64,000 bases of DNA, taken from the NCBI GenBank assembly GCA_965261845.1, contig OZ253475.1, forward strand, positions 2,790,152-2,854,151, read 5' to 3'. Below, piece after piece: positions 44,541-60,741 of the stretch. Numbering within the stretch: the first letter of the stretch is position 1; each line of letters starts with the position of its first letter. The notes under the pieces were generated by a model, which was given only the letters and a program-made list of their open reading frames with translations, did no database searches and was not told the origin of the DNA. This stretch comes from Candidatus Foliamicus sp. GTDB lineage: Bacteria > Pseudomonadota > Gammaproteobacteria > Steroidobacterales > Foliamicaceae. The position numbers and the translations under genes are program-made.

Positions 44541-44978
44541 TTAGTGGCCGTCGGCCAGGTCTCGTCGGTTGCCGTCCGCCAGATTCCTTGGACTGCCGTC
44601 CGCCAGGACATCGCGCATCCAGGCGTAGCCTCCGGTGCGGAGGTCCAGGTCCAATTCCTCTTCGTGGTCCTCCTCGTGGCGGTAGTCGCGGAAGGCCGAC
44701 CAATCGCCGTGGCGAAGGCCCGCGACGATGGCGAGGGCAAGGCTCGCGAGCACGGTCCAGGCGATAGCCGCGAGCCACAGCGGCGCGAGGAGTTCCTCGC
44801 CCATTCCGCTAACAGTGGCGGTGATCGCGAGGCCGATGGGCCCGAGCACGACAAGACGTTCGCGCCAGCGGCGACTCCGCGACACACGGCTGCGCCGGGG
44901 CAGCCGGTTGCGCCGGGGCGGCCGGTTGCACCGGGGCAGATTGGCACGGGGGGGCGGTGGAATCGAATTGCGGGTCAT
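44541..44978 (-). CDS. Small inner-membrane protein convergent with traG (candidate entry-exclusion factor)
   Basis: 145 aa. Basic N-terminus, two hydrophobic segments (LVVLGPIGLAITATV, LLAPLWLAAIAWTVLASLALAIVAGL), and an acidic C-terminus. The functional call rests on position only. Confidence 0.4.
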   Translation of the reverse strand: MTRNSIPPPPRANLPRCNRPPRRNRLPRRSRVSRSRRWRERLVVLGPIGLAITATVSGMGEELLAPLWLAAIAWTVLASLALAIVAGLRHGDWSAFRDYRHEEDHEEELDLDLRTGGYAWMRDVLADGSPRNLADGNRRDLADGH

Positions 44979-45091
44979 GGACGGGGTCTCCGGACAACGG
45001 GGGATGGGCGGGCCGGACTCTCGGGACCGCCACCGCTTGCCCGATCCCCCGCCCGGCTCCGCCTCTTCGCGGCGCGGGTTGCAGGAGATCC

Positions 45092-47317
45092 ATGCTCGTG
45101 AGGGCCTTTGGCGGCAGCACGCTGCGGGGCGGGCAGACCGTCTTCCACGGCCTGCACATGTGGAGCCAGCTCCTGCGCGCGGCCCTGCTGCTTACCGCGT
45201 TCGGAGTCGTCGCCACGCCCGCCTGGCGGGCCTGGGACCGCACCACCGGCTACGAGTGGTACGCCGCGGCAATCGTGACGGTCGCCGAGGCCAAGCTCGG
45301 GATCGGCTACGAGCGCACCATGCGCCAGGAAGTGCGCCAGCCCGACGGGCGGACCGTCGTCCTCACACTGTCCGAGATTGCTGCCTCGCCGCAGGCGCTG
45401 GCCATGCGCGAGAAGCTGAAAACAGAGCTGTTCGCGGGCGCCGCGCTCGGCGCAAGACTCTCTGCCGGCGCGATCGCTGTGCTGCTCGCGCTGTTCTGGC
45501 TGCGCGGCCGGCAGCTCGGGCGCAACCGCCGCATCCGCGGCGTCGAACTCGCCACGGTGGGCGAGCTGAAACGGCGCATCCGACCGTTGCCGCGGCGGGC
45601 CATCGATCTCGTCTCCCGCAGTCATCCTCCCTACCGCATCGCGGGAGCGCCGTATCCCGAGCGCGCCGAGACCCAGCACACCATCGTCTCCGGCACCACC
45701 GGATCGGGCAAGACCGTGCTGATCTCGGATCTCGTCGGGCAGATCCGCGAGCGCGGCGAGCGTTGCGTCGTCTACGACAAGATGGGCAGCTACACCCGCG
45801 CGTTCTTCGACCCGAAACGCGACCGGCTGCTCAACCCGCTCGATGCCCGAAGCCCCCGCTGGTCGCCGTTCTACGAGGCGCGAAGCCCGCGCGACTTCGA
45901 CACCATGGCCGCGGCGCTGATCCCGCAGCAGAAGGACACCGTCGATCCGTTCTGGGTCACGGCCGCCCGGCAGCTGTTCGCCAACGGCGCCGGGGTGCTG
46001 CGCGAAAGGGGTGTCACCGAGAACCGGGTGCTGGTCGAGCACCTGCTCAAGACCGACCTCACCCAACTCGCCCAGGCCATGGAGGGCACGGTGGCGCAGT
46101 CCATCGTCGATCCCGACAACCCCAAGACCGCGCTGAGCGTCCGCGCCATGCTCACCGCCAACATCGGCGCGCTGGAATACCTGCCCGACACCGGCGAGCC
46201 GTTCTCGATCCGCGACTGGATCGCCGACGACGGGCTTGCCCGGGACGGACCTGCCCGCAAGGGCGGCGGGTTCCTGTTCCTGACCTCGCGCGGCGACCAG
46301 CACGCCAGCCTGCGGGGGCTGATCTCGACCTGGCTTGAGATTGCCGTCAACGCCATGCTGTCGCTTAAGCAGGACGACGCCCGCCGCATCTGGGTTGTGC
46401 TCGACGAGTTGCCGACGTTGCACCAGGTGCCGAGCCTCCAGCCCGGGCTGGCCGAATCGCGCCAGTTCGGCGGCTGCTTCGTGCTCGGCATCCAGGTGAT
46501 CTCGGCGTTGCGCGACCTCTATGGGCGCAACGGCGCGGAGACCATCTCCGGGTTGTGCGGCACCCGTGTGGTGCTGGCCGCCCCCGACCGCGACACCGCG
46601 CAATGGTCGGCCGACAGCCTCGGGCGTAGCGAGGTCGAGGAGATCGCCGAGGGGTTCAGCTACGGCGCCAGCACCATCCGCGACGGCGTGTCGCTGACAC
46701 CCCGGCGCGAGCTGCGCCCGCTCGCGCTCGCCTCCGAGATCATGCAGCTTGAAAGCCTGCACGGCTGGCTGCGGTTCCCCGGCCCGCTGCCGGTCGCCCG
46801 CATCCGGCTCAACTACGTTGCTCGGCCCAAGGCGGCCGAGCGGTTCGTGTCGAGGCCGCCGGCTGCGCCGGAGCAAACGGCGGCCGCGAACGAAGTGGTG
46901 AAGGTGAAGGAAGAGTCGATGGCCAAGCCGCGGTCGAAGCGGTCAAGGGATGCAAATGACGACGCACCCGTTCTGCGGAGCGATGCGCTGGCTCTTCCGC
47001 CGCTGGATACGGACAGTGGATCGAAGCCACCTCCAAAAACGCGGCACGGCAACGACCGGAAGATGGCGAAGGCGCCAACGCGAAACACCGGATCGAACCC
47101 GGACACGAACTCCCGCGGCGCCGGCGGAACGGCCGAGTCCAGGCGCGAAGTCGATGCCGCGATTGCCCAACGGTCCAGCGGGACGGCCAAGGCCGGGAAC
47201 GCAAGGCGCCCCGCGCCGGTCGTTGAGCCAAAGGACCCACCCGCCGTCGCGGACGGTGATGGGACGGTTGAGGCCGATCGCGGCGCGGACGGGCAACCGG
47301 ACTGCGACTGGATGTAA
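45092..47317 (+). CDS. traD: Type IV coupling protein TraD
   Basis: ATG at 45092 after GCAGGAG. Two N-terminal TMs. Walker A is TIVSGTTGSGKTV; Walker B is RIWVVLDELPTL. Long disordered C-terminal tail. Confidence 0.9.
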   Translation: MLVRAFGGSTLRGGQTVFHGLHMWSQLLRAALLLTAFGVVATPAWRAWDRTTGYEWYAAAIVTVAEAKLGIGYERTMRQEVRQPDGRTVVLTLSEIAASPQALAMREKLKTELFAGAALGARLSAGAIAVLLALFWLRGRQLGRNRRIRGVELATVGELKRRIRPLPRRAIDLVSRSHPPYRIAGAPYPERAETQHTIVSGTTGSGKTVLISDLVGQIRERGERCVVYDKMGSYTRAFFDPKRDRLLNPLDARSPRWSPFYEARSPRDFDTMAAALIPQQKDTVDPFWVTAARQLFANGAGVLRERGVTENRVLVEHLLKTDLTQLAQAMEGTVAQSIVDPDNPKTALSVRAMLTANIGALEYLPDTGEPFSIRDWIADDGLARDGPARKGGGFLFLTSRGDQHASLRGLISTWLEIAVNAMLSLKQDDARRIWVVLDELPTLHQVPSLQPGLAESRQFGGCFVLGIQVISALRDLYGRNGAETISGLCGTRVVLAAPDRDTAQWSADSLGRSEVEEIAEGFSYGASTIRDGVSLTPRRELRPLALASEIMQLESLHGWLRFPGPLPVARIRLNYVARPKAAERFVSRPPAAPEQTAAANEVVKVKEESMAKPRSKRSRDANDDAPVLRSDALALPPLDTDSGSKPPPKTRHGNDRKMAKAPTRNTGSNPDTNSRGAGGTAESRREVDAAIAQRSSGTAKAGNARRPAPVVEPKDPPAVADGDGTVEADRGADGQPDCDWM

Positions 47318-50300
47318 TGGTCGTCTCGGTCGGCGCCGTCGCTTCTCCCTCTCAGGGCGTCTCCTACTACGAGCGCGACGGCTACTACGCGAAGGACGAT
47401 CCCGAGCACCGGAAACTAAGCGCCTGGGCCGGCAAGGGCGCGGAGGAGCTCGGCCTCGAAGGCCCGGTCGATCCGGACGTGTTCAAGGCGGTGCTCGAAG
47501 GCCGTGTGCCCGACGGATCGGGCAAGCGCCTCGGCCGGGTCGACAGGGACGGCAACCGCACCCACCGGCCCGGGCGCGACCTCACGTTCTCAGCGCCGAA
47601 GTCGGTCTCGCTCGTCGGCCTGGTCGGCGGCGACAGGCGTGTCGTCGAGGCGCACGACCGGGCCGTCAAGCGTGCGCTGTCCTGGGTCGAGGGCAACGCC
47701 GCGGAGACCCGCCTGCGGGATCCGGAAACCGGGCGGATGGTCCGGGCCGGCCACCAGAAGATGGTCGCCGCGACGTTCCGGCACAACGTCTCCCGCAACC
47801 TCGACCCCCAGCTACACACTCACGCGGTGCTCGCCAACATGGTAAAGGGCGAAGACGGCAAGTGGCGGACGATGGCCAACGAGGGGCTGTACCGCCGGCA
47901 GAAGCTGATCGGCATGATCTACCGCAGCGAGCTGGCGCGGGGTCTTTCAAAGCTCGACTACGGCATCGAGAAAAGCCACGCCGACGGGCGGTTCGAGATC
48001 GCGGGCGTGTCCCGCGACGTCGTCGAGGCGTTCTCGACCCGGCGCGCCGAGATCGAGGCGGCGGTGGCCGAGCGCGGCGCGGACGGCACCGCCGCCAATC
48101 CCAGGCTCGCTGAGCGTGCAGCGCTCATGACGCGGGCGCGAAAGCGCGACGTGGACAAGGGGGCGCTGCGCGAGAACTGGCAACGGCAGGCGGTGGAACT
48201 GGGGTTCGACGCCCGCGCGCTGGTCGTCGAGGCCGGCGGAAAGACCGCTTTGCCCGAACGGGAAGCGGTGGCGGAACCCACTACCGAGGCGGCGTCGCGG
48301 GGTGCATCGTCAGAGGTCGCCATTCGAAAAACGGAGGTGGCGCGTGAGGTGCTGGCGAGCACCGGCGTCGCTGCGGGCCAGGGTGCCGAAGGAACCGCCG
48401 GAACGGCGAAGACCCCGGGGGCCGAGGCCGCGGAATGGGCAGTTGCGCATCTTGCCGAGCGCGAGGCCGTGTTCAGCCGTTCCGATCTGCTGGCCGCGAC
48501 GCTGGCCTGGCGGCCCGGCGCGGTCTCGGTCGAGGCGGCCGAAAAGGCGGTGGGCGATCTCCAGCAAGCCGGAACGCTCCACGCGGCGCCGGCGCTCGAA
48601 TCGGGCGACGGCATGACCACCGACAAAGCGCTTGCCGACGAGCGCGAGACCATCGGCCTCATGCGGGATGGACACAACCGCGGCCGCCCGGTGATGCGAA
48701 GCTGGCTGGTGGGTGCGCGTCTGCACCGCGGACCGCTTACGGAAGGACAGCGGGAAGCCGTGAAACTGATCCTCGGGACGAAGGACCGCGTCGTGGGCGT
48801 TCAGGGCTACGCCGGCACCGGCAAGACCGCTATGCTGCGGCGGGTCCGGGCGCTCGCTGAGAAAAGCGGCCACCGCATGGTGGGGCTCGCGCCCTCGGCC
48901 TCGGCGGCGCAGACGCTCGCGGCCGAAGCGGGCATCGAGACCGAGACCCTGCAGTTGTTCCTTGCCCGCAACGGCGGGATCGCGGCGGGCCGCCTCACAA
49001 AGAAGGGCGAGCGCGAAATGCGCGCCGCGTTCGCCAAAACCGTCCTGGTGGTCGACGAGGGATCGCTCGCCTCCACCGTCCAGGCCCGCGACCTGCTCAG
49101 GATCGCGGGCGTCGTTCGCATTCCCAGGGTCGTTCTGGTCGGCGATTCCAAGCAGCTCGACGCCGTGGACGCCGGAAAGCCGTTCGCGCAGTTGCAGGAG
49201 GCCGGCATGAAAACCGCGACCATGGACCGGATCATGCGCCAGCGGAATCCCGACCTGAAGGCCGCCGTCGAGGCCAGCCTCGCCGGCGAGATCGCCAAGG
49301 CGTTTGAGAAACTCGGCTCCAATGTCGCGGAGGTGAAGCCCGACAACATTGCCGGAGCGGTCGCCGCGCGCTGGCTGAAGTTCTCCCCGGAAGAACGCGA
49401 GCGTACCGGGGTCATGGCGCCGAGCCATGCCTTGCGGCAGGCAATCAACGGACACATCCGGGAGCGGCTTGTCCGGGAGGGCCGCCTCCATGGCCCCGCG
49501 CTCCAGGGCGAGCGGCTGGTGTCGCGCGGCTACACCAACGCGGAGAAGGCGCTCAGCGGCAACTACGCGCCCGGCGACATCGTCGCCTTCCACCGCCCGT
49601 ACAAGCGGATCGGCGTGGGGAAGGGCGATGAGCGCCGCGTTGTCGGAGTTGATCAAAAGCACCGCCAGGTGCTGCTCGACGGCGGCGAAGACGGGACCGT
49701 GCGCTGGAAGCCGGGCGAGATCGCCGGGCGCCGGGGCGGCAGCGAGATCTACAAGGCCGAGGGCATCGAACTGCGCGCAGGCGACCGCGTCCGCTGGACC
49801 CGCAACGACAAGGGGCTCGGGCTGGTCAATAGCCGCACCGCCGAAGTGGTCGCGGTGAAGAACGGCCGGGTGACGTTCCGGCTGGAGGATGGGGGGAAGC
49901 TGGAACTCGGCCAGGGCGATCCGCAACTGCGCCACATCGACCATGCTTGGGCGTCGACCGTGCACGCGTTCCAGGGCCGCACCGTGGACAACGTGATAGC
50001 CGCCATGGAGGCGACGCACCCCCACCTGACCACGCAGAAGTCCTTTTACGTCGAGATCAGCCGGGCGCGGGACCGGGCTGAGCTGGTCACCGATGACGCG
50101 AAGGCGCTGCGCGAGCAATTGGAGGCCGTAACCGGCGAGCGGATATCGGCGCTGGAAGGTATCGGCGAAACAAAGCGCGAGGCACACGAATGGGAACAGG
50201 AAGCCATGCCTGGCGGTGAGCGCGAGCGAGAGCGTGGAGCGGAACTGGGCGGAGACAAGGATTCCGGATCAGCAACGCAACTGCACGAGGCGCGCGTGGC

Positions 50301-50340
50301 CGATCGGGATCGTGGCAAAAGCATGGATGTTGGGCTGTGA
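47317..50340 (+). CDS. traI: MobF-family relaxase/helicase TraI (TrwC-like)
   Basis: 1007 aa. N-terminal VSYYERDGYY (catalytic Tyr pair region). Three-His motif FRHNVSRNLDPQLHTHAVLAN. C-terminal RecD-like helicase (VGVQGYAGTGKTAML, VLVVDEGS, VLVGDSKQL). Confidence 0.9.
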   Translation: MVVSVGAVASPSQGVSYYERDGYYAKDDPEHRKLSAWAGKGAEELGLEGPVDPDVFKAVLEGRVPDGSGKRLGRVDRDGNRTHRPGRDLTFSAPKSVSLVGLVGGDRRVVEAHDRAVKRALSWVEGNAAETRLRDPETGRMVRAGHQKMVAATFRHNVSRNLDPQLHTHAVLANMVKGEDGKWRTMANEGLYRRQKLIGMIYRSELARGLSKLDYGIEKSHADGRFEIAGVSRDVVEAFSTRRAEIEAAVAERGADGTAANPRLAERAALMTRARKRDVDKGALRENWQRQAVELGFDARALVVEAGGKTALPEREAVAEPTTEAASRGASSEVAIRKTEVAREVLASTGVAAGQGAEGTAGTAKTPGAEAAEWAVAHLAEREAVFSRSDLLAATLAWRPGAVSVEAAEKAVGDLQQAGTLHAAPALESGDGMTTDKALADERETIGLMRDGHNRGRPVMRSWLVGARLHRGPLTEGQREAVKLILGTKDRVVGVQGYAGTGKTAMLRRVRALAEKSGHRMVGLAPSASAAQTLAAEAGIETETLQLFLARNGGIAAGRLTKKGEREMRAAFAKTVLVVDEGSLASTVQARDLLRIAGVVRIPRVVLVGDSKQLDAVDAGKPFAQLQEAGMKTATMDRIMRQRNPDLKAAVEASLAGEIAKAFEKLGSNVAEVKPDNIAGAVAARWLKFSPEERERTGVMAPSHALRQAINGHIRERLVREGRLHGPALQGERLVSRGYTNAEKALSGNYAPGDIVAFHRPYKRIGVGKGDERRVVGVDQKHRQVLLDGGEDGTVRWKPGEIAGRRGGSEIYKAEGIELRAGDRVRWTRNDKGLGLVNSRTAEVVAVKNGRVTFRLEDGGKLELGQGDPQLRHIDHAWASTVHAFQGRTVDNVIAAMEATHPHLTTQKSFYVEISRARDRAELVTDDAKALREQLEAVTGERISALEGIGETKREAHEWEQEAMPGGERERERGAELGGDKDSGSATQLHEARVADRDRGKSMDVGL

Positions 50341-50568
50341 TGTCCTGGTTCAAGACGCAGAGAGGATCGATACCGCAGGATCCAGAACCACTGTTTGTAG
50401 AGGGAAAAGGTTCTTTCGCCATCGAGTGAACGTCATACGCGAGTCGGAACACCACAGGAACTCGTATCCGATAACAATGTCGATGTCTTCCATATAGGAT
50501 GGCTAATCGCCATACACGCGTAGAATACTCAAAATATTCTCTTCACGAAATTTCGATATTATGATATT

Positions 50569-51417
50569 TTGATGGTTATGAACCAATCAAAAATACCCAG
50601 ACTAAAACCCCTCCTAGATGCGCTCCCGCCGGGATTTATCGTGGATACGGCGTGGCTGAAGGCGCGGGGCATCGACGCGAAGTCCATCCACGACTATGCC
50701 ACGCGCGGGTGGATCGAACGTGTCGTTCGCGGAGTTTACCGCCGTCCGCTGCCGAACGGCGCCCGGGCGGACGAACTGTCCTGGCAGGTGGTTCTGCTCT
50801 CCCTGCAGCGCTTCAAGGGCTGCAGCGTGCATCTGGGCGGGGAAAGCGCTCTGGATTTCGCCGGTCACGTCCACTATCTGAGCCTTGGAGGAACGCGGCG
50901 TGTTCATTTCTACGGCGACGCACCCTCGTGGCTCAAGCGTCTGCCGACAACGGAACAGATCGTCCTGCACCGATCCAGGCTGTTCGGCGGCGACCCGGTA
51001 GGGGTTGACGAGGCCGATGGCCTGGACGAGGACAACGGATGGGCCGTGGATGTTTGGCGATGGCCCATAAGGGCATCGTGTTCCGAACGCGCGATACTCG
51101 AAGCGATCGATGAACTGCCGAACAACGCGAGCTTCGAGCACCTGGACCGGATATTCGAAGGTCTGACAGGGCTGCGACCCAAGCGGCTCTTGACGCTGCT
51201 GGCGGCCTGTCGCAGCGTCAAGGTGCGGCGGCTGTTCTTCGTGTTCGCGGACATGCACGAACACGGCTGGCGAAAATACCTGGAAACCGAGCGGATCGAC
51301 TTCGGCAGCGGACCGCGGGCGCTTGTCCAGGGCGGAAGGTTTCATCCGACCTACGGCGTCTCCGTTCCCGAGTTCCTCCTTCCGGCAGCACCGGTAGCCG
51401 CGGGCAGCGATGATTGA
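50569..51417 (+). CDS. abiEi: AbiEi-family antitoxin / transcriptional regulator
   Basis: 282 aa. The N-terminal wHTH pattern ..GFIVDTAWLKARGIDAKSIHDYATRGWIERVVRGVYRRP is typical of AbiEi. It overlaps the following toxin gene by 8 nt. Confidence 0.75.
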   Translation: MMVMNQSKIPRLKPLLDALPPGFIVDTAWLKARGIDAKSIHDYATRGWIERVVRGVYRRPLPNGARADELSWQVVLLSLQRFKGCSVHLGGESALDFAGHVHYLSLGGTRRVHFYGDAPSWLKRLPTTEQIVLHRSRLFGGDPVGVDEADGLDEDNGWAVDVWRWPIRASCSERAILEAIDELPNNASFEHLDRIFEGLTGLRPKRLLTLLAACRSVKVRRLFFVFADMHEHGWRKYLETERIDFGSGPRALVQGGRFHPTYGVSVPEFLLPAAPVAAGSDD

Positions 51418-52324
51418 TCGTTACCTCGCGCAGGTTCGCCTGCTGGTGGACGTGCTGCCGGACGTTGCGGCGGAATCCGCATTCGCACTCAAGGGAGGCA
51501 CGGCCATCAACCTGTTCTACCGGGAAATGCCGAGGCTGTCGATCGATATCGACCTCACTTGGCTTCCGATCAGTGACCGTTCTTCGTCGCTCAGGGAAAT
51601 GGATAGCGCACTGGACCGCATCGCCACTTCGATCGTCAGACGCAACCGCGGGATTAGCGCGAGGCGCGCGAGTGGCGGTGGGCACAGCGACACGCGGATA
51701 TTGGTGACGCGGGGCCGGGTGCAGATCAAGATCGAGACCTCGCCGGTGGCACGGGGCGCGGTGTTCCCGCCACGGAGAATGGTGGCGTCCGAGTTCGTGA
51801 CGGAACAGTTTGGATTCGTTGAGATGAAGGTGCTGGCCTTCGAGGACCTTTTTGCCGGCAAGCTCGTTGCTGCGCTCGACCGCCAACATCCGCGCGACCT
51901 GTTCGACGTCAAGCTGCTTTACGAGCACGAGGGGCTCACCGACGATCTGTTCCGTGTATTCATGGTGTATGTGGCGAGTTCCCGTCGGCCGATGCACGAA
52001 CTGCTGGCGCCGGCCTTGCCGTCAAGAGCTGACTGGTACGATGCGGAGTTTGCAGGCATGGCTCGGGATCCTGTATCCCAGGAAGCGCTGTTGGAGACAG
52101 GGCGCCGTCTGCATGCGGATGTAGGGCCAAGATTGACAGGCAGGATCGCCACCCTTCTGCTCTCTCTCCACGATGCCGAGCCGGATTTCGGATTGATCGG
52201 GCTGCCCGAGGCTGCGGAATTGCCGGCTGTTCATTGGAAACTGCTCAACCTGGAGAGGCTGAGGCGGGCGGATCCTCAAAAGCATGCAGAACAGCGAGGT
52301 GCACTGGAACAGCTATTGCGATAA
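51410..52324 (+). CDS. abiEii: AbiEii/AbiGii nucleotidyltransferase toxin (DUF1814)
   Basis: 304 aa. FALKGGTAINLFYREMPRLSIDIDL.. and ..LAFEDLFAGKLVAALDRQHPRDLFD are signature motifs. Confidence 0.8.
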   Translation: MIDRYLAQVRLLVDVLPDVAAESAFALKGGTAINLFYREMPRLSIDIDLTWLPISDRSSSLREMDSALDRIATSIVRRNRGISARRASGGGHSDTRILVTRGRVQIKIETSPVARGAVFPPRRMVASEFVTEQFGFVEMKVLAFEDLFAGKLVAALDRQHPRDLFDVKLLYEHEGLTDDLFRVFMVYVASSRRPMHELLAPALPSRADWYDAEFAGMARDPVSQEALLETGRRLHADVGPRLTGRIATLLLSLHDAEPDFGLIGLPEAAELPAVHWKLLNLERLRRADPQKHAEQRGALEQLLR

Positions 52325-52604
52325 AGGGAGGTTGTGATCGAAGGTTGGCGGAATGCCAAACACCGCCGTTTGAGTCCGACCGCCTATCGGCACAACCCTA
52401 AGGGGGGCATTTGGGAGTTCCAGCAGTGGTGCGACGCGGAGAATAACGTTTCTTAAATCCTGTAAGAGAACCTTATCGGGTTTGGGACCGCAATCCGAAT
52501 CGGGGTTCTTGGATGTTGGCGGATATCCTCCACTGGCGGACGCGACCCAGAGGGCAACGCCAATGTGGACCAGGAAATGGCAGGAAGCTAGAATCCGTCC
52601 CGCC

Positions 52605-52970
52605 ATGACGAAACTGAAGGACATCCTTAAGAAGGTCGACCTGAAGGAAAGCGCGTCGCCTGGAGCCAAGACGGAGCGCGATGCGTCGCAAATTATTGCT
52701 GATAACGCGCAATCGCGCTCGCGAGCGGACGAGATCGCCAACCAACACGTACGTTGGCCTGAAAACCTCGATTTTGAGATTCCCGAGGAAGGGAAACTCC
52801 CGTTTATCGGGGGGACGCTGCGTGACATTCGCGATACGCTCAAGAGTCAGAAGAGGGCGGGCAAATTGATGCTGTGGATAGCCGTCGCGACCCTGCTACT
52901 GGTCGCCATACAGTTCGCCTTGAACACCTGGCTTGACTGGGATCAGCTTTCGGCTATCTGGGCGGATTGA
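52605..52970 (+). CDS. Hypothetical C-terminally membrane-anchored protein
   Basis: ~121 aa from MTKLKDILKK. One C-terminal TM (LMLWIAVATLLLVAIQFAL). Lower-GC region. Confidence 0.35.
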   Translation: MTKLKDILKKVDLKESASPGAKTERDASQIIADNAQSRSRADEIANQHVRWPENLDFEIPEEGKLPFIGGTLRDIRDTLKSQKRAGKLMLWIAVATLLLVAIQFALNTWLDWDQLSAIWAD

Positions 52971-52986
52971 TTTAGCGCAAAGAACC

Positions 52987-53331
52987 TCATCCAATGTCCG
53001 CAGGGTAATCGGGGATCTCCGTCTCTATCAGCCTGAGCTGCAATTCGATTGCTGCCCGAAAGGCATCAACAACCCGACACCATTCAGGTTCCTCAATACC
53101 GGCTTCCTGCAGCATGGCTTGGATTCTCCCCGTGCTGGTGACTTCTTCCTCCAGCGCGCCGCGCACGGTCTTGAAGAAGGCAAGCACTTCCGCATCGTTC
53201 AGGCGCTGGGTCGCAAGAAGGCCATTGACCAGGGCATGCAGCACGACGGCGCGGCCTGCCCGATACGCAGCCTGTGCAGCCCATACGTGTCGGATCGTCA
53301 CGGTCGCACCAATCGCCATCCATTTGCTCAC
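52987..53331 (-). CDS. Hypothetical protein
   Basis: 114 aa, last ORF of the minus-strand cargo block. No recognisable motif. Confidence 0.35.
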   Translation of the reverse strand: MSKWMAIGATVTIRHVWAAQAAYRAGRAVVLHALVNGLLATQRLNDAEVLAFFKTVRGALEEEVTSTGRIQAMLQEAGIEEPEWCRVVDAFRAAIELQLRLIETEIPDYPADIG

Positions 53332-53498
53332 ATCGTAGGTAACTCCGAGCTGACGTGCAGCTCGTAAATGAGACCTAATTGGACAGAATTGCCAAAAGAG
53401 ACTGGAATTGCCTCAAGAACGGAAATTTAGGGGCCTTTGAGCTAGAAAAATCCCTGTCGCCGGAAGTGACAAAATCCTGCGCCTCCGGCTTTCTCGAT

Positions 53499-55034
53499 TC
53501 AGCGACCAAAGACGATGTCCTCCCACACGGGAACTTGCTTCGAGCGGAGTCGCTTTAAGATGGCCAAGCGACAGATTGCTTGGCCTTCCTTCAGGACCAC
53601 GGTATCGGCTTTCTTCACGCGGCCCGCATGAATCACGCCCGACGCGGAGGAGTAGACCTTTTTGAGAACATCAAACCGTTGCCGTCTTTCGGAGCGATTG
53701 CGGCCCGTATACCAGGCGCCATTAGTTGCAAGGCGGAAGGTCAGTTCCGTTCTATTGCCTCTAGGTAGAAACAGCGCCTCCAGGGCTGTCCTGAGAAAAA
53801 CCAGGCGGTCCGCGTTATCTGGACGGCGCGCCTTTGATTTCAGCCAGTAGTGCAGGGCGGTCTCGACATCGTCGGGCAGCTTGCATAATTCGGGCAGAAG
53901 CCGGGTGGCTTTCTTGAGGTCATCTTCCGTCAACGTCGGCTCCGTTGCTGTGCGGGGGGGCGGTTCGCCACTGCCCGAATAGGCGGAGCTGTTTCGCTGG
54001 CCGAAATGGGCGTGGTCGCCATAGTCGGTCCAGATCACGGGTGTTTCCACCGCGACATCGCAGACGAGGGACAGCGCGCGCTTGAGCTGATCGATGCCTC
54101 CGGCTGGCAAAGGCCAACTTACTTCCATTTTGGCCAAGGGTCTCCAGGACACGATGGCTGGACGGCCAGTTTGCTCGGCATCATTGGTGGGCATTGAGAG
54201 GACAGGAGCGATCTTGCAAGGAACACGGAGCACCGTGCGGTCCAGAAAATCCGTTAGCGGGACGCCATAACCGGTGGGCAGCCAGTACTCGAGGTGCTTG
54301 CTCTTGCGTGGCAGTCGTTCCACAGATAGGCCGCTTGCAAGGGCAAAGGATTTTGCTGCATTGAGCCGTCCAAGAAGGATCCGAGTCTCGAACGCGAGCG
54401 GTGAGCCGCGCGCCCAGCGAAGCACCTTGCTTGCCGTGCGTTGGGGAGTACCGAGGCAAGCGTCAACGAGAAGGTAACGCCATAGGCTTGCCGATGTCGA
54501 GACTCCGATGGATTTGCGCGGCGAATTTCGCTGCTCTATCGGACAACCGTAGCCGCCGACAACCGGGTCGAGGGCGTGGCCGACATGTCCGTCGAACAGG
54601 ATTCCGAGGTCATCCAGCAGTGCCTCGAATATTGATAGGCGCGCTGGGTTTTCGATACCGTTGGGGAGTGGTGCCACGTGGATGTCAGAATCAAACATTT
54701 TCCGCTTCCAGCCACCTGATTGATGCAGCGCCAAAAGGCCGAGTGCGTCGAGTTCTTTCTCCAAGGTTTTCTTGAGCGTTATAGCGGTGCTGCCACCGTA
54801 GGGGGTTGGCCGGAACTCGACATCGCCACGCGCGAATTGCGTCAAGGAAAAGCGTGCGGAGCGCAGCTCGGCGTAAAGAAGCGACGCGAGCACCAACCCC
54901 CTTTTTCTGTCGTCGGCTGTTCCCAGCGGAGTGTGTCGCTTACGCTCCATAGCGGCTAATGCCCGGCCTTCCCGACTGTGGATGATATCGGGAAGAGGGC
55001 TCGCTTTCCAATCTTGTCTAGACCGTCTAGACAC
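53499..55034 (-). CDS. Uncharacterised 511-aa protein with an Apea-like-HEPN-like C-terminal domain
   Basis: The C-terminal ~120 aa LRTALEALFLPRGNRTELTFRLATNGAWYTGRNRSERRQRFDVLKKVYSSASGVIHAG follow the pattern (..alEsL...e..elt.rla.r.A.l......eR..i...lk..Y..RS.ivHG). Ala replaces the motif Arg. The N-terminal 380 aa are unrecognised. Confidence 0.6.
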   Translation of the reverse strand: MSRRSRQDWKASPLPDIIHSREGRALAAMERKRHTPLGTADDRKRGLVLASLLYAELRSARFSLTQFARGDVEFRPTPYGGSTAITLKKTLEKELDALGLLALHQSGGWKRKMFDSDIHVAPLPNGIENPARLSIFEALLDDLGILFDGHVGHALDPVVGGYGCPIEQRNSPRKSIGVSTSASLWRYLLVDACLGTPQRTASKVLRWARGSPLAFETRILLGRLNAAKSFALASGLSVERLPRKSKHLEYWLPTGYGVPLTDFLDRTVLRVPCKIAPVLSMPTNDAEQTGRPAIVSWRPLAKMEVSWPLPAGGIDQLKRALSLVCDVAVETPVIWTDYGDHAHFGQRNSSAYSGSGEPPPRTATEPTLTEDDLKKATRLLPELCKLPDDVETALHYWLKSKARRPDNADRLVFLRTALEALFLPRGNRTELTFRLATNGAWYTGRNRSERRQRFDVLKKVYSSASGVIHAGRVKKADTVVLKEGQAICRLAILKRLRSKQVPVWEDIVFGR

Positions 55035-55205
55035 CCTTATACTTCGGGGCCGGATCAGAATGACTACTGTTACCTACTGTTATTACGGATATTTTCATCT
55101 TGAACAAATTCTTTATCCAACGATTTTGCCAACGCTTATGCCGGTTGCACCAACCTTCCGGTCCCTTCAGGCACCTGGAATGCCAAAGGGTTCCCGGAGT
55201 CTTTA

Positions 55206-55541
55206 TCAGAACGGCCAGTTGGCCTCGGGCTGCGCCGTCTGGTACTTCGCTCCGACAAAAGGTGGATTGCCGAAGACGAAGGAGCAATCATCGGGTGGAA
55301 GCAATCCCGACCAGTCCGTCTCCAGCGCGTCGCCGTGAAGGATGTGTGGCGACTTCGCGAGGGAAATTCGGACATAGGACTGGCCGAATTCCAGACTCAG
55401 CCGAATGTTCATGATGTGATCCATCATCCACAACGCGGTTTCCGCGATGCGAGACGGGAACTCGCCAAGCTCGATTCCATAGAACTGGTCCACATCCACG
55501 ATCGATAGGTCCGACGCCAATGCGTCCATCTGTCTTCCCAT
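55206..55541 (-). pseudogene. Fragment of an N6-adenine DNA methyltransferase (MmeI / type IIL-like), truncated at both ends
   Basis: QFYGIELGEFPSRIAETALWMMDH...LHGDALETDW.....FVFGNPPFVGAKYQT contains motif IV (NPPF). Motif I (upstream) and the TRD (downstream) are missing. Confidence 0.6.
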
Positions 55542-55592
55542 CTATGGGCATTTAGTCGGCTGGGCCAGCCTCGAATTCCAAGGGACTGTCAT

Positions 55593-57002
55593 TCAAAGGT
55601 CTCTCAGGGTGTCCTCGATACTTGCCAGTTCCTCATCAATCTGTTCGCAGATATGACAGAAGTGGTTCGCAAGTGTTTCGTGTTCCTGCAAGATTGACCC
55701 CACAAATTCTTGCGCGTCCCGCCCCGATGCATGGCCTTTTTGCTTCGTGCGAACCAACTGGGCCGTTCGTAAGCCATCTAGTCGAACTGGCTCATCATGC
55801 TCGTTCACATTGTTAAGGATCTTCTCAAGTAACACAATGCTTCCTTCCTGCTTATCAAACGGTACGGTTCGTTCAGCCAATACCTTGCGCAACGGCCTTA
55901 TGACGAATCCCTCATGTACCAGTTTTGTTAGATCCAGAAAGGCTTCAGCCCATTCATCGCGACTTGAAGTGTGAGGCACGCAAGCGCGGACCATTGTTTG
56001 CTCGTCGCGCGGGCGCCACCACGAAGGTGGGTCTTTGTTCCACTTTCGGACTCTCGACCGAATCTGACTCAAAGGGTCAATGAAAGAAGTCCACCGTCCC
56101 TGAAAGTCATGTTCTAGCGCTCTTCTTGAAATGGGCGCCTTGGGTTTCTCATTGAAGGATTGCCAATAGAGCTGTTCAGAATACGGCAGTTTCCGTAAGT
56201 CGCAAATATAGGCATGAACCTGTCCTGCAGCGTTTGTATCGAAGCGGCGCAAGTGCCACGCTCCGCGGCAGGAGATATTACGATCACGGATCTTATACTT
56301 GTCGCGGTCGGCTTTGTATTTCAGTAATACGTCTGGCCTAAAGAAAGCTGGCGAAAGTTCAAAAGGAAGCTCGTTCTCATTCGCAGCAAAATAGTTGGTA
56401 GTTGCACCCGGCGCGACTGAGATTGTGACCACCCGATTGTTACGCCAGTCATGTGTGATGAATTCTGCATACTGTCTCTGGTCTCTTCCAAGCCAAGAAT
56501 CCTGCTTAGAAGAGAGAATTGCTGCCTTGCTACGGCTAGGACGGACGATTAGAACACCTCTGGTGTATGCGGCTGGGCCAAAAACATTTTGCCGATAGAA
56601 GAGATCATCAGACTCGACGATCAATTGGCCTGGCCCATCTCCCCATAACGGCGGAAGAGGACGATCGAACAGCGTGAAATCGAAAAGCAGCACGAGTAGC
56701 TGACTTGAAGCGGCCAGATACACTTCAAGTGATTCTCGTTTGAAAGATACTAGACATACCTTGTCTTCACTACGCATTGTTATGGAGACTACGTGTTCAA
56801 CGTCGCCATGATCGTCAAACCTGCAATAGCTTCCATGCTCGGGTTTCCAGTGAAGATTCTCAAGATGTGAATACTCCTGCAGCAGCTCGAAGTAGTCGCT
56901 GTCGCCACCATTCGAGTCCTCAAAGGTGCGTCCATATACAAGCTGTTTTCCCCTTTCCAATATCTGGGAACCCGCGAAGTCGCCACATCGTTCGATCCAC
57001 AT
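55593..57002 (-). CDS. Uncharacterised 469-aa protein (lower GC), with a C-terminal helical region carrying an R-x5-H motif
   Basis: Long intact ORF with a codon usage distinct from the neighbours. No family was recognised by eye. LRTAQLVRTKQKGHASG near the C-terminus is compatible with HEPN but not diagnostic. Confidence 0.55.
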   Translation of the reverse strand: MWIERCGDFAGSQILERGKQLVYGRTFEDSNGGDSDYFELLQEYSHLENLHWKPEHGSYCRFDDHGDVEHVVSITMRSEDKVCLVSFKRESLEVYLAASSQLLVLLFDFTLFDRPLPPLWGDGPGQLIVESDDLFYRQNVFGPAAYTRGVLIVRPSRSKAAILSSKQDSWLGRDQRQYAEFITHDWRNNRVVTISVAPGATTNYFAANENELPFELSPAFFRPDVLLKYKADRDKYKIRDRNISCRGAWHLRRFDTNAAGQVHAYICDLRKLPYSEQLYWQSFNEKPKAPISRRALEHDFQGRWTSFIDPLSQIRSRVRKWNKDPPSWWRPRDEQTMVRACVPHTSSRDEWAEAFLDLTKLVHEGFVIRPLRKVLAERTVPFDKQEGSIVLLEKILNNVNEHDEPVRLDGLRTAQLVRTKQKGHASGRDAQEFVGSILQEHETLANHFCHICEQIDEELASIEDTLRDL

Positions 57003-57057
57003 TCCTTCGCGGCCCCCGCCGGATACATAGCTAGCAGCATGGCCAAATGGAGTGCAA

Positions 57058-58636
57058 TTCCATGCTAGGAGCTTGCGCCGTAGGATAGTTCTTTGGGGTC
57101 GTTAGCGGATTCGCCCCCGTCTGGGAGTGGATTCACTTTTCCCCAAGCATTTTTCGGGGTCGTGCGCCAGGAATCCGGCGGATCGGGCCGCTCCGCGCGG
57201 CTCATTGGCCTGGTGAGCAGGCCCAGTGGGGCTGATTTCCCTCGCTTCACGCCGCCTGAAGCCCCGGCATCCGCTTGATGTTGAGCGCCAGACACACCAG
57301 GGCCCACTCGCCCCGAACCTTGCGCAGACCGCGCACACTGAACTGCCGAAAACCCATCGACTGCTTGATCCAGCCGTTGGGCGCCTCCGAAAGCCACTTG
57401 CGCCGGGCATACTGCGCGCGGCCTTCCTCACCCGCCAGCTTCTCCGCCATGCGCGCTTTGGCCGGATGCGCCACGGCGTCGGCGTCGGCCGCTTTCTTGC
57501 CCTCCCGGCCCAGGGCCACGCAGCCGTCCACGCCCCGATCCTCCAAGGCCGACAAATCCCGCTCGTTGCAATACCCCGCGTCCGCCAACACCCGCTCCGG
57601 AACCGCCCCATACGCTGCCTTCACCTCGTCCAGGCGCGGCAGCAACTGGCCCTGGTCGCTGGCGTTCGCCGTCACCTCCGCCGCCACAATCAACTGATGC
57701 GCATCATCCACCGCCAACTGCGCGTTGTAACACTGCTGAAAACCCTCCGATGACGTCTTCATGATCCGGCTCTGGGGATCCGTGAAGTTGCTCTGCGCCT
57801 TATCATCCGGCTCCCCGTATTCGCGCTTGTACGGCCGGCCGCCCTTCGGGTTCCGCTTCAGGCCCGGTACGCGCCCGCGCGCATCGTCCTTCTCCCGCTG
57901 AACCGCCTCCAAACGCGCCTTCGCCTCGCGGATCGCCTTGAGACGGTCTTTGCGCCGCTTCAACTCCGAAGGCATCTCATCGCCCCGAACGTCCACCCCA
58001 AAACGCTCGTCCTCTGCCGCGTCCACCGCGCCCGCACGGCCCACCAGCGCCTCAATCTCCGCCTCAAGGCGCTTCTCCTCGGCAACCATCCGCCCATAGC
58101 TCATCGCCTTGCGCTTGGAGGCGTTCGCTCGAACCTTCGTCCCGTCAATCGACAACGTCCCAAAACGCGCCGCGCCCACCAAACCCGCCAGGCGAACCAC
58201 CTCCACAAACAAACGCTTGAAATCGTCCAGATGACGGCGCCGAAACTCGCAAATCGTCCGGTGAGAAGGAAAGTTGCCGGCCGCCAACACACGAAACGCC
58301 ACGTCCTCCTCCAGCTTGCGAGCCAAAGCCCGCGAGGAAAACACGCCCGTGGCATACCCGTATATCAACACCTTCAGCATCATCAAAGGCGCATACGGCG
58401 ACTTGCGACGCCCATCGCCCTCATACGGCGCGTAAAACACCCCCAAGTCCAGACCGTCCACCAGGTCGCTCACGTGATGCGCCAAATGACCCGCCGGCAG
58501 CCAGTCCTGCAAAGCCGGCGGCATCAACAGCATCTGTTCCGGATCATACGGGCGAAACGTCGTCGGCATATCTTCAAACCCTTGGCCTTACACTTCCCCC
58601 ATTATCGCCGTTCCTACGGCGCAAGCTTGCATGGAA
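57058..58636 (-). mobile_element. IS1182-family insertion sequence (~1.58 kb)
   Basis: Inverted repeats TTCCATGC(TAGG)AGCTTGCGCCGTAGGA at 57058-57085 and the reverse complement at 58612-58636. Single transposase gene. Confidence 0.75.
57247..58569 (-). CDS. IS1182-family transposase
   Basis: 440 aa. FRPYDPEQMLLMPPALQDWLPAGHLAHHVSDLVDGLDL..YAPLMMLKVLIYGYATGVFSSRALARKLEEDVAFRVLA.. is typical of the IS1182 N-terminus. C-terminal DDE with ADAGY. Confidence 0.85.
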   Translation of the reverse strand: MPTTFRPYDPEQMLLMPPALQDWLPAGHLAHHVSDLVDGLDLGVFYAPYEGDGRRKSPYAPLMMLKVLIYGYATGVFSSRALARKLEEDVAFRVLAAGNFPSHRTICEFRRRHLDDFKRLFVEVVRLAGLVGAARFGTLSIDGTKVRANASKRKAMSYGRMVAEEKRLEAEIEALVGRAGAVDAAEDERFGVDVRGDEMPSELKRRKDRLKAIREAKARLEAVQREKDDARGRVPGLKRNPKGGRPYKREYGEPDDKAQSNFTDPQSRIMKTSSEGFQQCYNAQLAVDDAHQLIVAAEVTANASDQGQLLPRLDEVKAAYGAVPERVLADAGYCNERDLSALEDRGVDGCVALGREGKKAADADAVAHPAKARMAEKLAGEEGRAQYARRKWLSEAPNGWIKQSMGFRQFSVRGLRKVRGEWALVCLALNIKRMPGLQAA

Positions 58637-58949
58637 CAAATTGTAAATCATTGATACTAAAGGAATAAAATTTTTGGGTTTTACACAGGTCAAGGTGGGC
58701 AACTCCAGCGCTTGTTCCCTGCGGCCAGCGCCGCGGGAACCGTGGTGAACACTCCTAGGCAAATACAGGATGATGGATGCTATGTGTCAGCAAGGGTATC
58801 CGTCACGCTATCAGTATCAATTGCGCCTAACAAGGATGCCCCGAAAGCCATAAGGAAATTCTCGATAAAGTGTGCAAGCATTTCGCAAAACAATTGCTGC
58901 CAACCCCTCAAGAATACAAACGGATCTACTCACGATTAGCAGAGAAAAG

Positions 58950-59114
58950 ATGACCAAGAAACTAGTCGCCTACTTGCTGGCGGCGGTACCATTCGTAACA
59001 GTAGCAGTTGCAGACGATGAATCCACAGAAGATACCCAAGAAGTCGTAGAAGAAGTCCTAGAAGAGGCCTTCAAAGGGGCGATGATGAATCAACCCGGGT
59101 TTACCGGAGGCTGA
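58950..59114 (+). pseudogene. Small secreted acidic protein ORF, with its 3' end replaced by the IS3 terminus
   Basis: MTKKLVAYLLAAVPFVTVAVADDESTEDTQEVVEEVLEE.. is a signal peptide. The last 9 codons and the stop lie inside the IS3 inverted repeat that begins at 59086. Confidence 0.35.
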
Positions 59115-59700
59115 TTAGTTTGAGTCAAGCCGCCATGGCCGACACTTCCAGTTTCCGATAATACTCGCCCTCTTTCTCCACCGGTGGCATGTCGGCGATC
59201 GGTTCGAGCAAGCGTCGATGATTGAACCAGTCGACCCACTTTAGCGTCGACAGCTCCACCGATTCAAGATGGTGCCAGGGGCCGCGCAGGCGGATAATTC
59301 CGGTCACGGTGGCGCCTGGCAGAACTCGGTGTGACTGTCGATCGACTCGGCAAGATGCCGGGCATGGTTTTGTATTTCGAGAAGATGGATTGGTTGCTGC
59401 CAATCGAATCGGTCACGAACCACGGGCCGGTGGAAGCAAAACGCCACAACGCCTGGCCAACCTGTTCTCTGAGGCGCGCCCCGGTTTCGTTTACATCACA
59501 GACTTTCCAGATCGCGGAGTGATGGGCCGATATCTCGTGGACATCTCCTGGGAGAAGGAAGTGTGGTGCGCGGATGCGCCCACTCATGTCATTCACTTTG
59601 AGGGTGAACGCTTTCTGGGACCTTATGAGCGGGCTGATAGCTGAGGAGTTGCCGGGCGTCGGGGCGTCACTACGCCATGCTGTCAACCGGCAATCAACTT
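59086..59700 (-). mobile_element. Second IS3-family fragment. It holds the right IR plus a degenerate, frameshifted 3' half of orfB, and is inverted relative to the 23-kb fragment.
   Basis: Reading inward from 59086, TGAATCAACCCGGGTTTACCGGAGGCT matches the IRL at 23032 in 24 of 27 positions. The orfB C-terminus GPWHHLESVELSTLKWVDWFNHRRLLEPIADMPPVEKEGEYY ends at 59125. Upstream orfB-like motifs (IWKVCDV.., VTDSIGSNQS) are in another frame. Confidence 0.7.
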
Positions 59701-60083
59701 TGCGCCGAAGCCGCATGCCGGATTGAAACCTGCGAATCCCGGGCGTTCTTTGTGATCTGGTCGCATTCGTCCTGCCGTCCCTCGCGGATCATTTCGTCGC
59801 GTTTGAGCGTGGAGATCAGATAGACGCCGCGATAGATGCGCTCGACCTGGGCGACGATCTCCGGCGGGAGCTGCGGAGGATTCTGAGTGAGCGTGCCAGC
59901 GGTGAGGCTGACCGCGGCGTGGCGCACGAACTCCGCGGCCGTCATTCCGCGTGCCATGGCTTCCTTTTCGATGCAAGCCCACTCGGAATCGGAGAACCGG
60001 ATGGAGCGCGGCACTCGCGGCTGGGGCTGTTTTCCGGCGGGATTCTGGTCGGACTTTGCAGTTTCGGACTCGTTTTCGTTCAT
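59694..60083 (-). CDS. Ribbon-helix-helix (CopG/MobC-like) DNA-binding protein
   Basis: RSIRFSDSEWACIEKEAMARGMTAAEFVRHAAVS is a classical RHH strand-helix-helix. The start is either MNENESE (60083) or the track ATG at 60107. Confidence 0.65.
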   Translation of the reverse strand: MNENESETAKSDQNPAGKQPQPRVPRSIRFSDSEWACIEKEAMARGMTAAEFVRHAAVSLTAGTLTQNPPQLPPEIVAQVERIYRGVYLISTLKRDEMIREGRQDECDQITKNARDSQVSIRHAASAQS

Positions 60084-60179
60084 GAGCTTATCTCCAAAGC
60101 GCTGCATTCGATGGCCCCAGAACCGCCGTGATCGTCACAGCCGAGGGCTTGCCACTGTCTTTCCGAGGTCCATTTCCTT

Positions 60180-60296
60180 GTATGCCATCAGCATACATAT
60201 AGGATCGGCCCTTGAAGGAAACGTATGCTGTAAGCATACGCCATTCCGCAAGTCCTTGGAGCACAGGGAAATCCCCGCGTATGCTCCAGAGCATAC
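60180..60296. promoter_or_regulatory. Three copies of the palindrome GTATGC-N5/6-GCATAC upstream of the RHH gene
   Basis: GTATGCCATCAGCATAC (60180-60196), GTATGCTGTAAGCATAC (60223-60239) and GTATGCTCCAGAGCATAC (60279-60296). They lie in a 634-bp non-coding gap. Confidence 0.6.
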
Positions 60297-60741
60297 GCTC
60301 GGCCCATCAACGCCGAGGCGTTCCAAATCGCTGAGATCGCACAGCACTGCGGGACAGGCGCGCGCATGGCACACACCGCAGAGGAACTGCGTGGGGTGTG
60401 AAAACCGAGCCGCCTCCGGCGTCGAGAAGAGCACCGGGAGGCGGCATTCATGATGAGTAAATCGTCGCCGGAGAAGTCGGCGGGAGGGAGCCGTGGCGGC
60501 GAATGAGCGGCGGGAAGTGCGGACACTACCGCGGGCGGTCGTGCCTGGCACGCTGCCGGAGACGGCGGCGGATCGGTCCGCAGTGGTCCGAACACCGGCG
60601 CGCGGCGAAGCCGTCACTGGCGGCATGTCAGGCACGACGCTGGATTGGGCGCAACGTCGCGGCGGCGGGGCTGCCGGCTTCGACCAAAAAGAAGCGGGCC
60701 GCGCCGCCGGAGAGCGACGCGACCCGCGGGGTCGTTGCGGA

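Follow-up and report, generated by a model that had tools for sequence, protein, structure and literature searches.

Gene content of a low-GC block beside the relaxase gene

The window analysed here is a 64-kb stretch of Candidatus Foliamicus sp. contig OZ253475.1, and our subject is the block at 50.5–57 kb within it. The gene that precedes this block encodes a TrwC-type relaxase (PF08751, 1.5e-85), and the block itself is horizontally acquired accessory cargo beside that gene, carrying an AbiE pair, a restriction-modification (R-M) remnant and an insertion sequence (IS). As an island it is ordinary. What is new is an unannotated protein superfamily, represented in the block by a 483-amino-acid (aa) protein and marked by a reciprocal arginine swap between clades, and, secondarily, a family of ~569-aa proteins represented by a truncated gene.

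All of the open reading frames (ORFs) listed in a first-pass annotation of the block exist in the sequence, and the drop in guanine-plus-cytosine (GC) content that it described past the relaxase is clear at two scales. GC falls from 0.68–0.73 over 46–50 kb to 0.49–0.63 over 50–57 kb when calculated per 500 nucleotides (nt), and from 0.70–0.73 over 26–50 kb, the conjugation module, to 0.555–0.605 over 50–60 kb when calculated per 2 kb. The proposed block end at 57002 has to be moved, as the low-GC tract extends to about 60.5 kb. The features of the block are as follows.

50569–51417, plus strand: AbiEi antitoxin/transcriptional regulator, 282 aa (Pfam AbiEi_3 2.6e-35, AbiEi_3_N 7.3e-21)
51410–52324, plus strand: AbiEii nucleotidyltransferase toxin, 304 aa (Pfam PF08843 3e-39)
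52563–52970, plus strand: small ORF, 135 aa, with a hydrophobic C-terminal segment (ORF list and gene call on a sister contig)
52987–53319, minus strand: small ORF, 110 aa (114 aa from a GTG at 53331), directly downstream of the 483-aa gene
53499–54950, minus strand: 483-aa stand-alone protein, alpha/beta over the N-terminal ~340 aa, then an all-helical C-terminal domain, HEPN-derived by homology
55206–55541, minus strand: internal fragment of an MmeI-family type IIG methyltransferase domain, 111 aa, pseudogene remnant
55593–57071, minus strand: 5′-truncated remnant of a 568-aa gene (ORF 55593–57002, 469 aa)
57070–58627, minus strand: IS1182-type insertion sequence, 1558 bp, with perfect 16-nt terminal inverted repeats at 57070–57085 and 58612–58627

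The 483-aa protein belongs to a large unannotated superfamily

The 483-aa gene had been read as a 511-aa ORF running to 55034 (53499–55034). That frame is over-extended: homologues of 475–483 aa start at its Met29, which makes the real product 483 aa long. The protein had no matches in Pfam, PADLOC, NCBIfam or the PDB sequences, and its only PHROGs match was a weak one to phrog_28161, a family of unknown function (E 0.006). Nor did any of 112 distant relatives match Pfam or PADLOC individually, or the PDB sequences when used as a profile. A profile search of 1.84 billion representative sequences recovered 5669 relatives at E <= 1e-3 and 1278 at E <= 1e-10, mostly 420–480 aa long and best conserved at profile positions ~145–475. 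The AlphaFold (AF2) model of the window protein (predicted local distance difference test, pLDDT, 84.9; predicted template modelling score, pTM, 0.85) is mixed alpha/beta to about residue 340 and all-helical at residues 342–481.

The genes around 483-family members differ from locus to locus and include no conserved partner, so that the protein resembles ApeA-like effectors in acting, presumably, as a single gene. Relatives lie near genes of integrative and conjugative elements or other conjugation genes in the window, in L004 (a second copy of the same element, described below) and in L101 (Tra genes), near the toxin-antitoxin pairs HigBA, Phd or Gp49-HTH in L100 and L103, and near IS elements; at L003 the neighbour is an AbiU2-HEPN gene, and at L005 there are ParA and ribbon-helix-helix (RHH) genes.

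A motif arginine is reciprocally swapped between two clades

The first-pass annotation had called the C-terminus of this protein HEPN-like, which is borne out: it is homologous to a clade whose Rx4H motif is canonical. In a tblastn search of plasmids, a 422-aa protein encoded on a conjugative plasmid of Cupriavidus pauculus (MOBH/MPF_F) aligned to residues 264–482 of the 483-aa protein. On that plasmid (NZ_CP044066; L108, 1–6711) the gene sits beside putAbiC and a Wadjet-like DUF3375/DUF4194/SbcC trio. The Prokaryotic Genome Annotation Pipeline (PGAP) names the 422-aa protein ‘HEPN domain-containing protein’, and PGAP and UniRef name its relatives likewise; Pfam and NCBIfam searches did not reproduce PGAP’s name for it. 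We refer to the window protein’s clade as clade A (77 + 112 = 189 aligned sequences) and to 120 relatives of the Cupriavidus protein as clade B. Comparison of the C-terminal domains of the two clades with hhalign gave a probability of 100% (E 6.5e-46). In the alignment, window KVYSSASGVIHAG stands opposite Cupriavidus SIYQFRSNAVHTG, which has the canonical R-x4-H, and 114 of the 120 clade B sequences carry Y-x2-R-S-x3-H. On these comparisons the C-terminal domain of the 483-aa protein is HEPN-derived and homologous to the clade that has the canonical motif.

The window protein itself carries L-R387-T-A-L-E391 in helix 1 and Y433-x2-A436-S437-x3-H441. Position 436 is Ala, Gly, Ser, Cys or Thr in 189 of 189 clade A sequences and never Arg (the window reads A436-S-G-V-I-H441), while Y433, S437 and H441 are invariant in the clade, including its 112 diverse members. 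E391 and R422 are also invariant, across sequences that are only ~25% identical overall. Helix 1 shows the reciprocal pattern: clade A reads L-R-x-A-L-E, with R387 present in 187 of 189 sequences, whereas clade B reads L-G-I-A-L-E. When positions 387 and 436 were taken as a pair, 212 sequences had Arg with a small residue and 102 had Gly with Arg, as did one further sequence listed with clade A. No intermediates, either Arg with Arg or Gly with a small residue, were present among the sequences paired in this way.

R387 lies one helical turn before the invariant helix-1 Glu391, and an upstream acidic residue is known to augment the HEPN active site (PMC3710099). Some HEPN families have lost the motif Arg yet keep other conserved basic residues, which may substitute for it (PMC3710099). 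Families of this kind, such as Parep1/8 of the HEPN-T clade, are like the 483-aa protein in this respect: of Rx4-6H they keep the His and lack the Arg, for which further basic residues under strong conservation have been proposed as substitutes (PMC3710099). They differ from it in lineage and architecture, and in the 483-aa clade the putative substitute is pinpointed by the reciprocal swap with a sister clade. From this pattern we infer that R387 may have taken over the catalytic role of the lost motif Arg.

The protein resembles ApeA at the level of motifs

ApeA is reportedly a single-gene HEPN anti-phage protein (Gao et al. 2020), and we compared the 483-aa protein with Ec1ApeA and Ec2ApeA, whose sequences were taken from E. 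coli genomes. The clade B hidden Markov model (HMM) matched Ec2ApeA at 21 bits; the match falls into two pieces, one at the helix-1 motif (LWIAIESL), the other at the catalytic motif (IYRTRNLIVHTG). In addition, hhalign gave 66% for clade B against the catalytic region of Ec2ApeA. The whole-protein HMMs A1 and A3 scored about 0–2 bits against Ec1ApeA and Ec2ApeA, and neither the PADLOC ApeA model nor Pfam HEPN_Apea matched the 483-aa protein or its 112 relatives.

The likeness lies in architecture and motifs. Each protein is encoded by one gene and combines a large non-catalytic part at the N-terminus with a HEPN domain at the C-terminus. Their helix-1 motifs (‘x-I-A-L-E-x-L’) line up, as do their ‘I-Y-x-x-[R]-[SN]-x-x-x-H-x-G’ motifs, and both occur in mobile, defence-type neighbourhoods. 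In contrast, ApeA is 583–601 aa long, with its two HEPN motifs ~100 residues further apart; its N-terminal region is helical and catenin-like, whereas that of the window model is mixed alpha/beta, and the sequences of the two are unrelated. The catalytic Arg of ApeA (R521 in Ec1ApeA, R502 in Ec2ApeA) is Ala in the window protein, and the position of the window Arg (387) is Trp in ApeA and Gly in clade B. The C-terminal domain is thus ApeA-like at the motif level, and the protein as a whole is not an ApeA, because it has no ApeA or HEPN_Apea match, an unrelated N-terminal region, ~100 fewer residues and no catalytic Arg at the usual place.

The anticodon loops of tRNAs are what ApeA cleaves; its activators are deoxydinucleotides, and the ligand binds outside the active site (bioRxiv 10.64898/2026.01.26.701840). 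The experimentally active Ec2ApeA of E. coli JNQH497 (L110, 2501–4252) is labelled ‘hypothetical protein’ in RefSeq, and its gene lies inside the tail and lysis genes of a P2-like prophage.

The 469-aa ORF is the remnant of a 568-aa gene truncated at an insertion sequence

The other large protein proposed as a candidate, the 469-aa ORF, is incomplete. Its homologues (1719 clusters at E <= 1e-3) form a family in which nearly all of the 120 best matches are about 550–600 aa long, mostly 567–572 aa, and Met1 of the ORF aligns to Met100 of the homologue P0099. An intact version of the gene was found on a sister contig (ENA ERZ26694896 ctg116186; L004), a metagenome contig bearing the same element: window positions 44804–57071 are 99.83% identical to it, and the match ends at the IS inverted repeat. 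By tblastn, residues 77–568 of the L004 568-aa protein align to window 57071–55596 at 100% identity, so that homology to the intact gene reaches 57071 (codon 77). In the AlphaFold model of a full-length family member (pLDDT 84.4), the N-terminal domain (residues 1–86) is separate, with a disordered linker (87–106) after it. Because window homology stops at the IS end, at 57071, the whole N-terminal domain of the 568-aa protein has been lost, and it is exactly this modelled domain (residues 1–86) that the window copy lacks. The copy is most probably non-functional, and in annotation the ‘469-aa protein’ should be flagged as an IS-truncated pseudogene in a partly eroded island.

The IS1182 copy reported upstream of the minus-strand genes was confirmed by its perfect inverted repeats and by the domains of its transposase (57247–58569, minus strand; Pfam DUF772, DDE_Tnp_1 and DDE_Tnp_1_6), which together mark it as an IS1182-type element. 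Its spacing had been given as 56 nt; the IS end is actually 67 nt from the ATG at 57002. The element is single-copy in the window and 89% identical to an IS in L005. A simple insertion was considered and rejected: the L004 gene sequence is not resumed on the right-hand side of the IS, which implies that a deletion or rearrangement accompanied the IS. In the flanks (57055–57069 and 58628–58642), ...CAATTCCATGCTAGG lies to the left of the IS and TGCATGGAACAAATT... to the right, and they hold the reverse-complementary octamers TTCCATGC and GCATGGAA.

L004 lacks the IS at this site. It carries the complete 568-aa gene, a 1360-aa gene 61 nt upstream of it and then a pair made up of PSK_trans_fac and PIN proteins (VapBC-like). 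The 1360-aa protein matches Eco57I in Pfam and the PADLOC type IIG R-M and DrmMI-like models, with PDLC03613 covered over nearly its full length. What the window lost is thus seen at L004 2842–9358: the VapBC-like pair, the 1360-aa type IIG R-M/DrmMI-like gene and the intact 568-aa gene. With a complete type IIG R-M enzyme and a VapBC-like pair in addition, as in the intact L004 copy, the ancestral block would have looked even more like a defence or addiction island.

The ~569-aa family is widespread and sometimes ends R-M operons

Intact members of the ~569-aa family occur in Proteobacteria, Acidobacteriota, Chloroflexota, Nitrospirota, Planctomycetota and Deinococcota, with a mean column identity of 67% and 50–57% identity between phyla. 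Neither the window copy nor full-length members matched Pfam, PADLOC, NCBIfam, PHROGs or the PDB sequences. Foldseek returned nothing below E 0.01 for the 569 model against the PDB and BFVD. Among the Foldseek results for the 483 and 569 models, a match to Avs3 (probability 0.72, template modelling (TM) score 0.20) was judged uninformative. Among close relatives, similarity at the DNA level is limited to the gene and about 165–270 nt upstream of it.

At about 11 of 82 loci the gene comes last in an hsdR-hsdM-hsdS operon, as at L001, or follows a type IIG gene on the same strand, in several cases across a gap of 4–61 nt, and at one locus it is convergent with a type ISP enzyme. Most copies are not beside R-M genes: 117 upstream proteins span 158 Pfam families with none dominant. 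All-versus-all clustering of these 117 neighbours, together with Pfam and PADLOC scans, likewise yielded no dominant neighbour. Scattered neighbours of a defence-related or mobile kind include Hma/DISARM/BREX-type helicases, integrases and TOTE, and HigBA in Truepera. A 33%-identical member on the P. aeruginosa megaplasmid pWTJH6 (NZ_CP104587; L109, 7001–15400) lies beside CBASS-type genes for a SAVED-domain protein, a nucleotidyltransferase, a ThiF/E1-like protein, a JAB/MPN protein and a 3′-5′ exonuclease. At about 8 of 85 loci an ORF of ~265 aa lies directly downstream of the 569 gene, or nearby on the opposite strand, and may be a facultative partner (L009 11704–12504; L114 8710–9507; L029, L032, L033 and L074, about 11713–12513; L034; L044); it is absent from the window and from L004.

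The helical C-terminal domain of the family has an invariant R518-x5-H524. As a HEPN domain it was rejected by profile comparison: hhalign to clade A, clade B and ApeA gave only 0.1–0.3%, which leaves the motif as a lead and no more. With the accessory genes at the 3′ end of R-M operons, such as PrrC/RloC and the HEPN-type genes listed in PMC3710099, the family shares the operon-end position at some loci and a helical C-terminal domain with R518-x5-H524. It differs from them in having no detectable homology to ApeA, to the clade A or B HEPN domains or to library families, in lying mostly away from R-M genes and, for the window copy, in being truncated. With more than 1700 clusters, 50–57% identity across phyla and, at some loci, a place at the end of R-M operons, the family is an unannotated candidate to be studied from an intact copy only.

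The two large proteins occur independently of each other

The first-pass annotation had proposed the two large proteins as an undescribed system and suggested looking for their co-occurrence elsewhere. We searched the six-frame translations of each family’s loci with the profile HMM of the other, using 80 genome loci with 10-kb flanks for the 569 family and 25 loci for the 483 superfamily. None of the 80 loci had a 483-type gene within 10 kb, and none of the 25 had a 569-type gene. The sole locus besides the window with both families is L004, which is the same element. The family profiles are unrelated (hhalign probability 9.5%), and both families are solitary, in variable neighbourhoods rich in mobile elements. 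The co-occurrence tests and hhalign together led us to reject the paired system. At one locus, L037, a 320-aa ORF directly 3′ of the 569-family gene (11884–12900) has a weak match to the clade B HEPN profile (E 7e-5); this is the only locus with a HEPN-like gene of clade B type beside the 569 family.

The AbiE pair is intact, whereas the MmeI-like piece is a dead fragment

In the AbiE family the toxin is AbiEii, a nucleotidyltransferase; AbiEi both neutralises this toxin and acts as repressor of the operon. Both genes of the window pair, recognised as such in the first pass, match Pfam and PADLOC models over their full length (PADLOC AbiEi 7e-81, profile positions 4–229 of 233; PADLOC AbiEii 1.7e-111, positions 3–289 of 290). 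AbiEi has the N-terminal winged-helix domain and the C-terminal antitoxin domain, and the DUF1814-type nucleotidyltransferase, with its GGTA...DIDL motifs, is encoded directly downstream in one operon, the two genes overlapping by 8 nt (51410–51417). The pair, judged from these matches, is an intact type IV toxin-antitoxin or abortive-infection pair. In its full-length models, overlapping two-gene layout and nucleotidyltransferase motifs it is like known systems, with no notable difference, and it can be taken as an ordinary new member on a conjugative element.

The MmeI-like ORF is truncated at both ends, as had been suspected. It contains NPPF and matches only the interior of its profiles (Pfam MmeI_Mtase 1.3e-23, positions 58–155 of 259; PADLOC REase_MTase_IIG 5.4e-35, positions 405–500 of 912), and the gaps on either side of it, 172 nt and 51 nt, are too short for the remaining enzyme. 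It shares its methyltransferase-domain match and NPPF with MmeI-family type IIG enzymes, which are full fusions of ~900 aa, and keeps about 12% of such an enzyme, without the nuclease, helicase-spacer and target-recognition domains; it is therefore a remnant and not a system. L004 carries the same fragment, as 107 aa; neither the type IIG gene of L004 nor that of L003 is related to the fragment. A conserved MmeI-like partner of the 483-aa gene was rejected on two grounds: the 889-aa methyltransferase at L003 is not homologous to the window fragment, and other loci have no such gene at all. The piece is dead and has no functional link to either large protein.

The two small ORFs noted as membrane or unknown are present, at 52482–52970 on the plus strand and 52987–53331 on the minus strand. 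The first was extended mechanically to a TTG start at 52482 (162 aa); in L004 it is 100% identical and called as 135 aa. It had no family matches in library scans and was not found at other 483-family loci. The 110-aa ORF had only a sub-threshold match, to DUF6074 (Pfam, E 5e-4). Its place next to the 483-aa gene is conserved no further than the close relatives L003 and L004 (74% aa identity), and with the 483-aa gene it makes up the sole DNA-level module held in common with L003, 2 kb at 86% identity. It was not found with more distant 483-family members. The minus-strand ORF, in its 114-aa form, was rejected as a conserved partner or antitoxin of the 483-aa gene for this reason, its presence in L003 and L004 only.

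A probable set of independent conflict modules as cargo of a conjugative element

We consider it fairly probable that the block is conjugative-element cargo made up of independent, stand-alone conflict modules in differing states of decay, and not one multi-gene system. The block would have been acquired from lower-GC sources as the cargo end of the element. Within it, the 483-aa protein would be a latent RNase: its ~340-aa N-terminal region may sense an infection cue and, by analogy with ApeA, license the cleavage of RNA, probably tRNA, which would make the protein a single-gene abortive-infection effector. More recently, the IS1182-type element and a deletion would have removed the N-terminal domain of the 568-aa gene, the R-M gene and the VapBC-like pair.

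Of the earlier proposal of anti-phage cargo, the acquired cargo with AbiE, an R-M remnant and an IS stands, and the two-protein system does not. Neither of the two large proteins matches PADLOC, Pfam, NCBIfam or PDB entries, so that any anti-phage role for them is one that we infer from gene context. The PADLOC, remote-homology and structure searches that had been recommended for both proteins yielded the HEPN homology for the 483-aa protein and no library or fold match for either. If the 483 family is active, it would represent a sizeable HEPN defence-effector clade now invisible to Pfam, PADLOC and NCBIfam models, and a natural example of a catalytic residue relocating within the HEPN active site. 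Only tentatively would we extend this to the whole, such that the 483 superfamily (5669 representative clusters) would be single-gene abortive-infection RNases whose catalytic Arg moved from the Rx4H helix to helix 1 and, separately, the ~569 family would be an R-M-associated conflict protein, widespread and highly conserved, for which no fold relative is detectable.

Several observations pull the other way. The 483-aa protein lacks the Rx4-6H catalytic motif, and its domain could be catalytically dead and serve in binding or regulation. For its model, Foldseek found nothing below E 0.01 in the PDB, the best HEPN-type match being Csm6 at a probability of 0.35. Each of the two clades is monophyletic, and so the Arg swap may go back to one event in an ancestor. 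No match in PADLOC, Pfam, NCBIfam or the PDB sequences ties either large family to defence, and two 483-family members (L006 and L106) sit among plain housekeeping genes. Finally, AbiE, VapBC and R-M modules can equally serve the maintenance of the element.

This last point underlies an alternative that we regard as somewhat unlikely, namely that the block is addiction or stabilisation cargo, with AbiE acting as a type IV toxin-antitoxin pair and the ancestral VapBC and type IIG R-M enzyme acting by post-segregational killing, perhaps together with the HEPN protein in the role of a toxin. Every module that can be recognised belongs to a type known for stabilising mobile elements, the block is directly beside relaxase and coupling-protein genes, and relatives of the 483-aa protein lie in conjugative regions (the Tra genes of L101, the MOBH/MPF_F plasmid) and near partition-like ParA/RHH genes (L005). 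However, the 483-aa gene has no conserved antitoxin-like partner, the downstream ORF being confined to L003 and L004, and some copies are chromosomal and outside obvious mobile elements. Defence and maintenance are moreover not mutually exclusive, and sequence alone is compatible with phage defence, element maintenance or both.

A catalytically inactive HEPN-like domain, which would make the 483-aa protein a non-enzymatic sensor, scaffold or nucleic-acid binder like the HEPN domains fused to nucleotidyltransferases, we hold to be unlikely. The absence of the motif Arg from all 189 aligned clade members speaks for it, as does the view that HEPN lineages without the motif probably bind substrate only (PMC3710099). 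Yet S437, H441 (the essential His), Y433, E391 and R422 are invariant, and R387 nearly so, at ~25% overall identity, which has the look of a maintained active-site pattern, and no partner enzyme is conserved nearby.

It is improbable that the truncated 469-aa ORF still functions, with its beta-rich middle and helical C-terminal domain transcribed from the IS end and neo-functional or constitutively active. The break coincides almost exactly with the linker predicted to be disordered (87–106), the start Met aligns with a Met in P0099, the frame is open for 469 codons, and the retained part is 100% identical to the intact copy, so that the truncation is recent; but at this identity selection has had no time to leave a trace, members of the family are as a rule full-length (as nearly all of the 120 best matches are), and the native upstream region of ~165–270 nt, conserved among close relatives, has been lost. 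A single multi-gene defence system made up of the 469-aa and 511-aa proteins, whether or not the 114-aa ORF is included, is very improbable: the genes are adjacent on the same strand in the window and L004, but they do not co-occur at the 80 and 25 other loci, the dead MmeI fragment lies between them, the 469-aa copy lacks its N-terminal domain and the two differ in GC (about 0.50 against 0.59), which suggests separate acquisitions.

The rest of the window

Beyond the IS, the low-GC continuation (58628–60500) holds three further features.

58872–59114: 80-aa ORF
59125–59403, minus strand: C-terminal remnant of an IS3-type transposase
59694–60107, minus strand: NikA-like mobilisation protein, 137 aa (PF21983, 2.4e-6)

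No tRNA genes were found anywhere in the 64-kb window, which is a compositional mosaic: its first 24 kb have a GC of about 0.60–0.65, rising to 0.69 over 14–18 kb. Positions 8928–10101 are 98.3% identical to an IS5-like element of L004 (DUF772/DDE_Tnp_1, 316 aa). The L004 copy of that element adjoins the coupling-protein gene, so that the same IS occupies different sites in the two copies of the genome or element.

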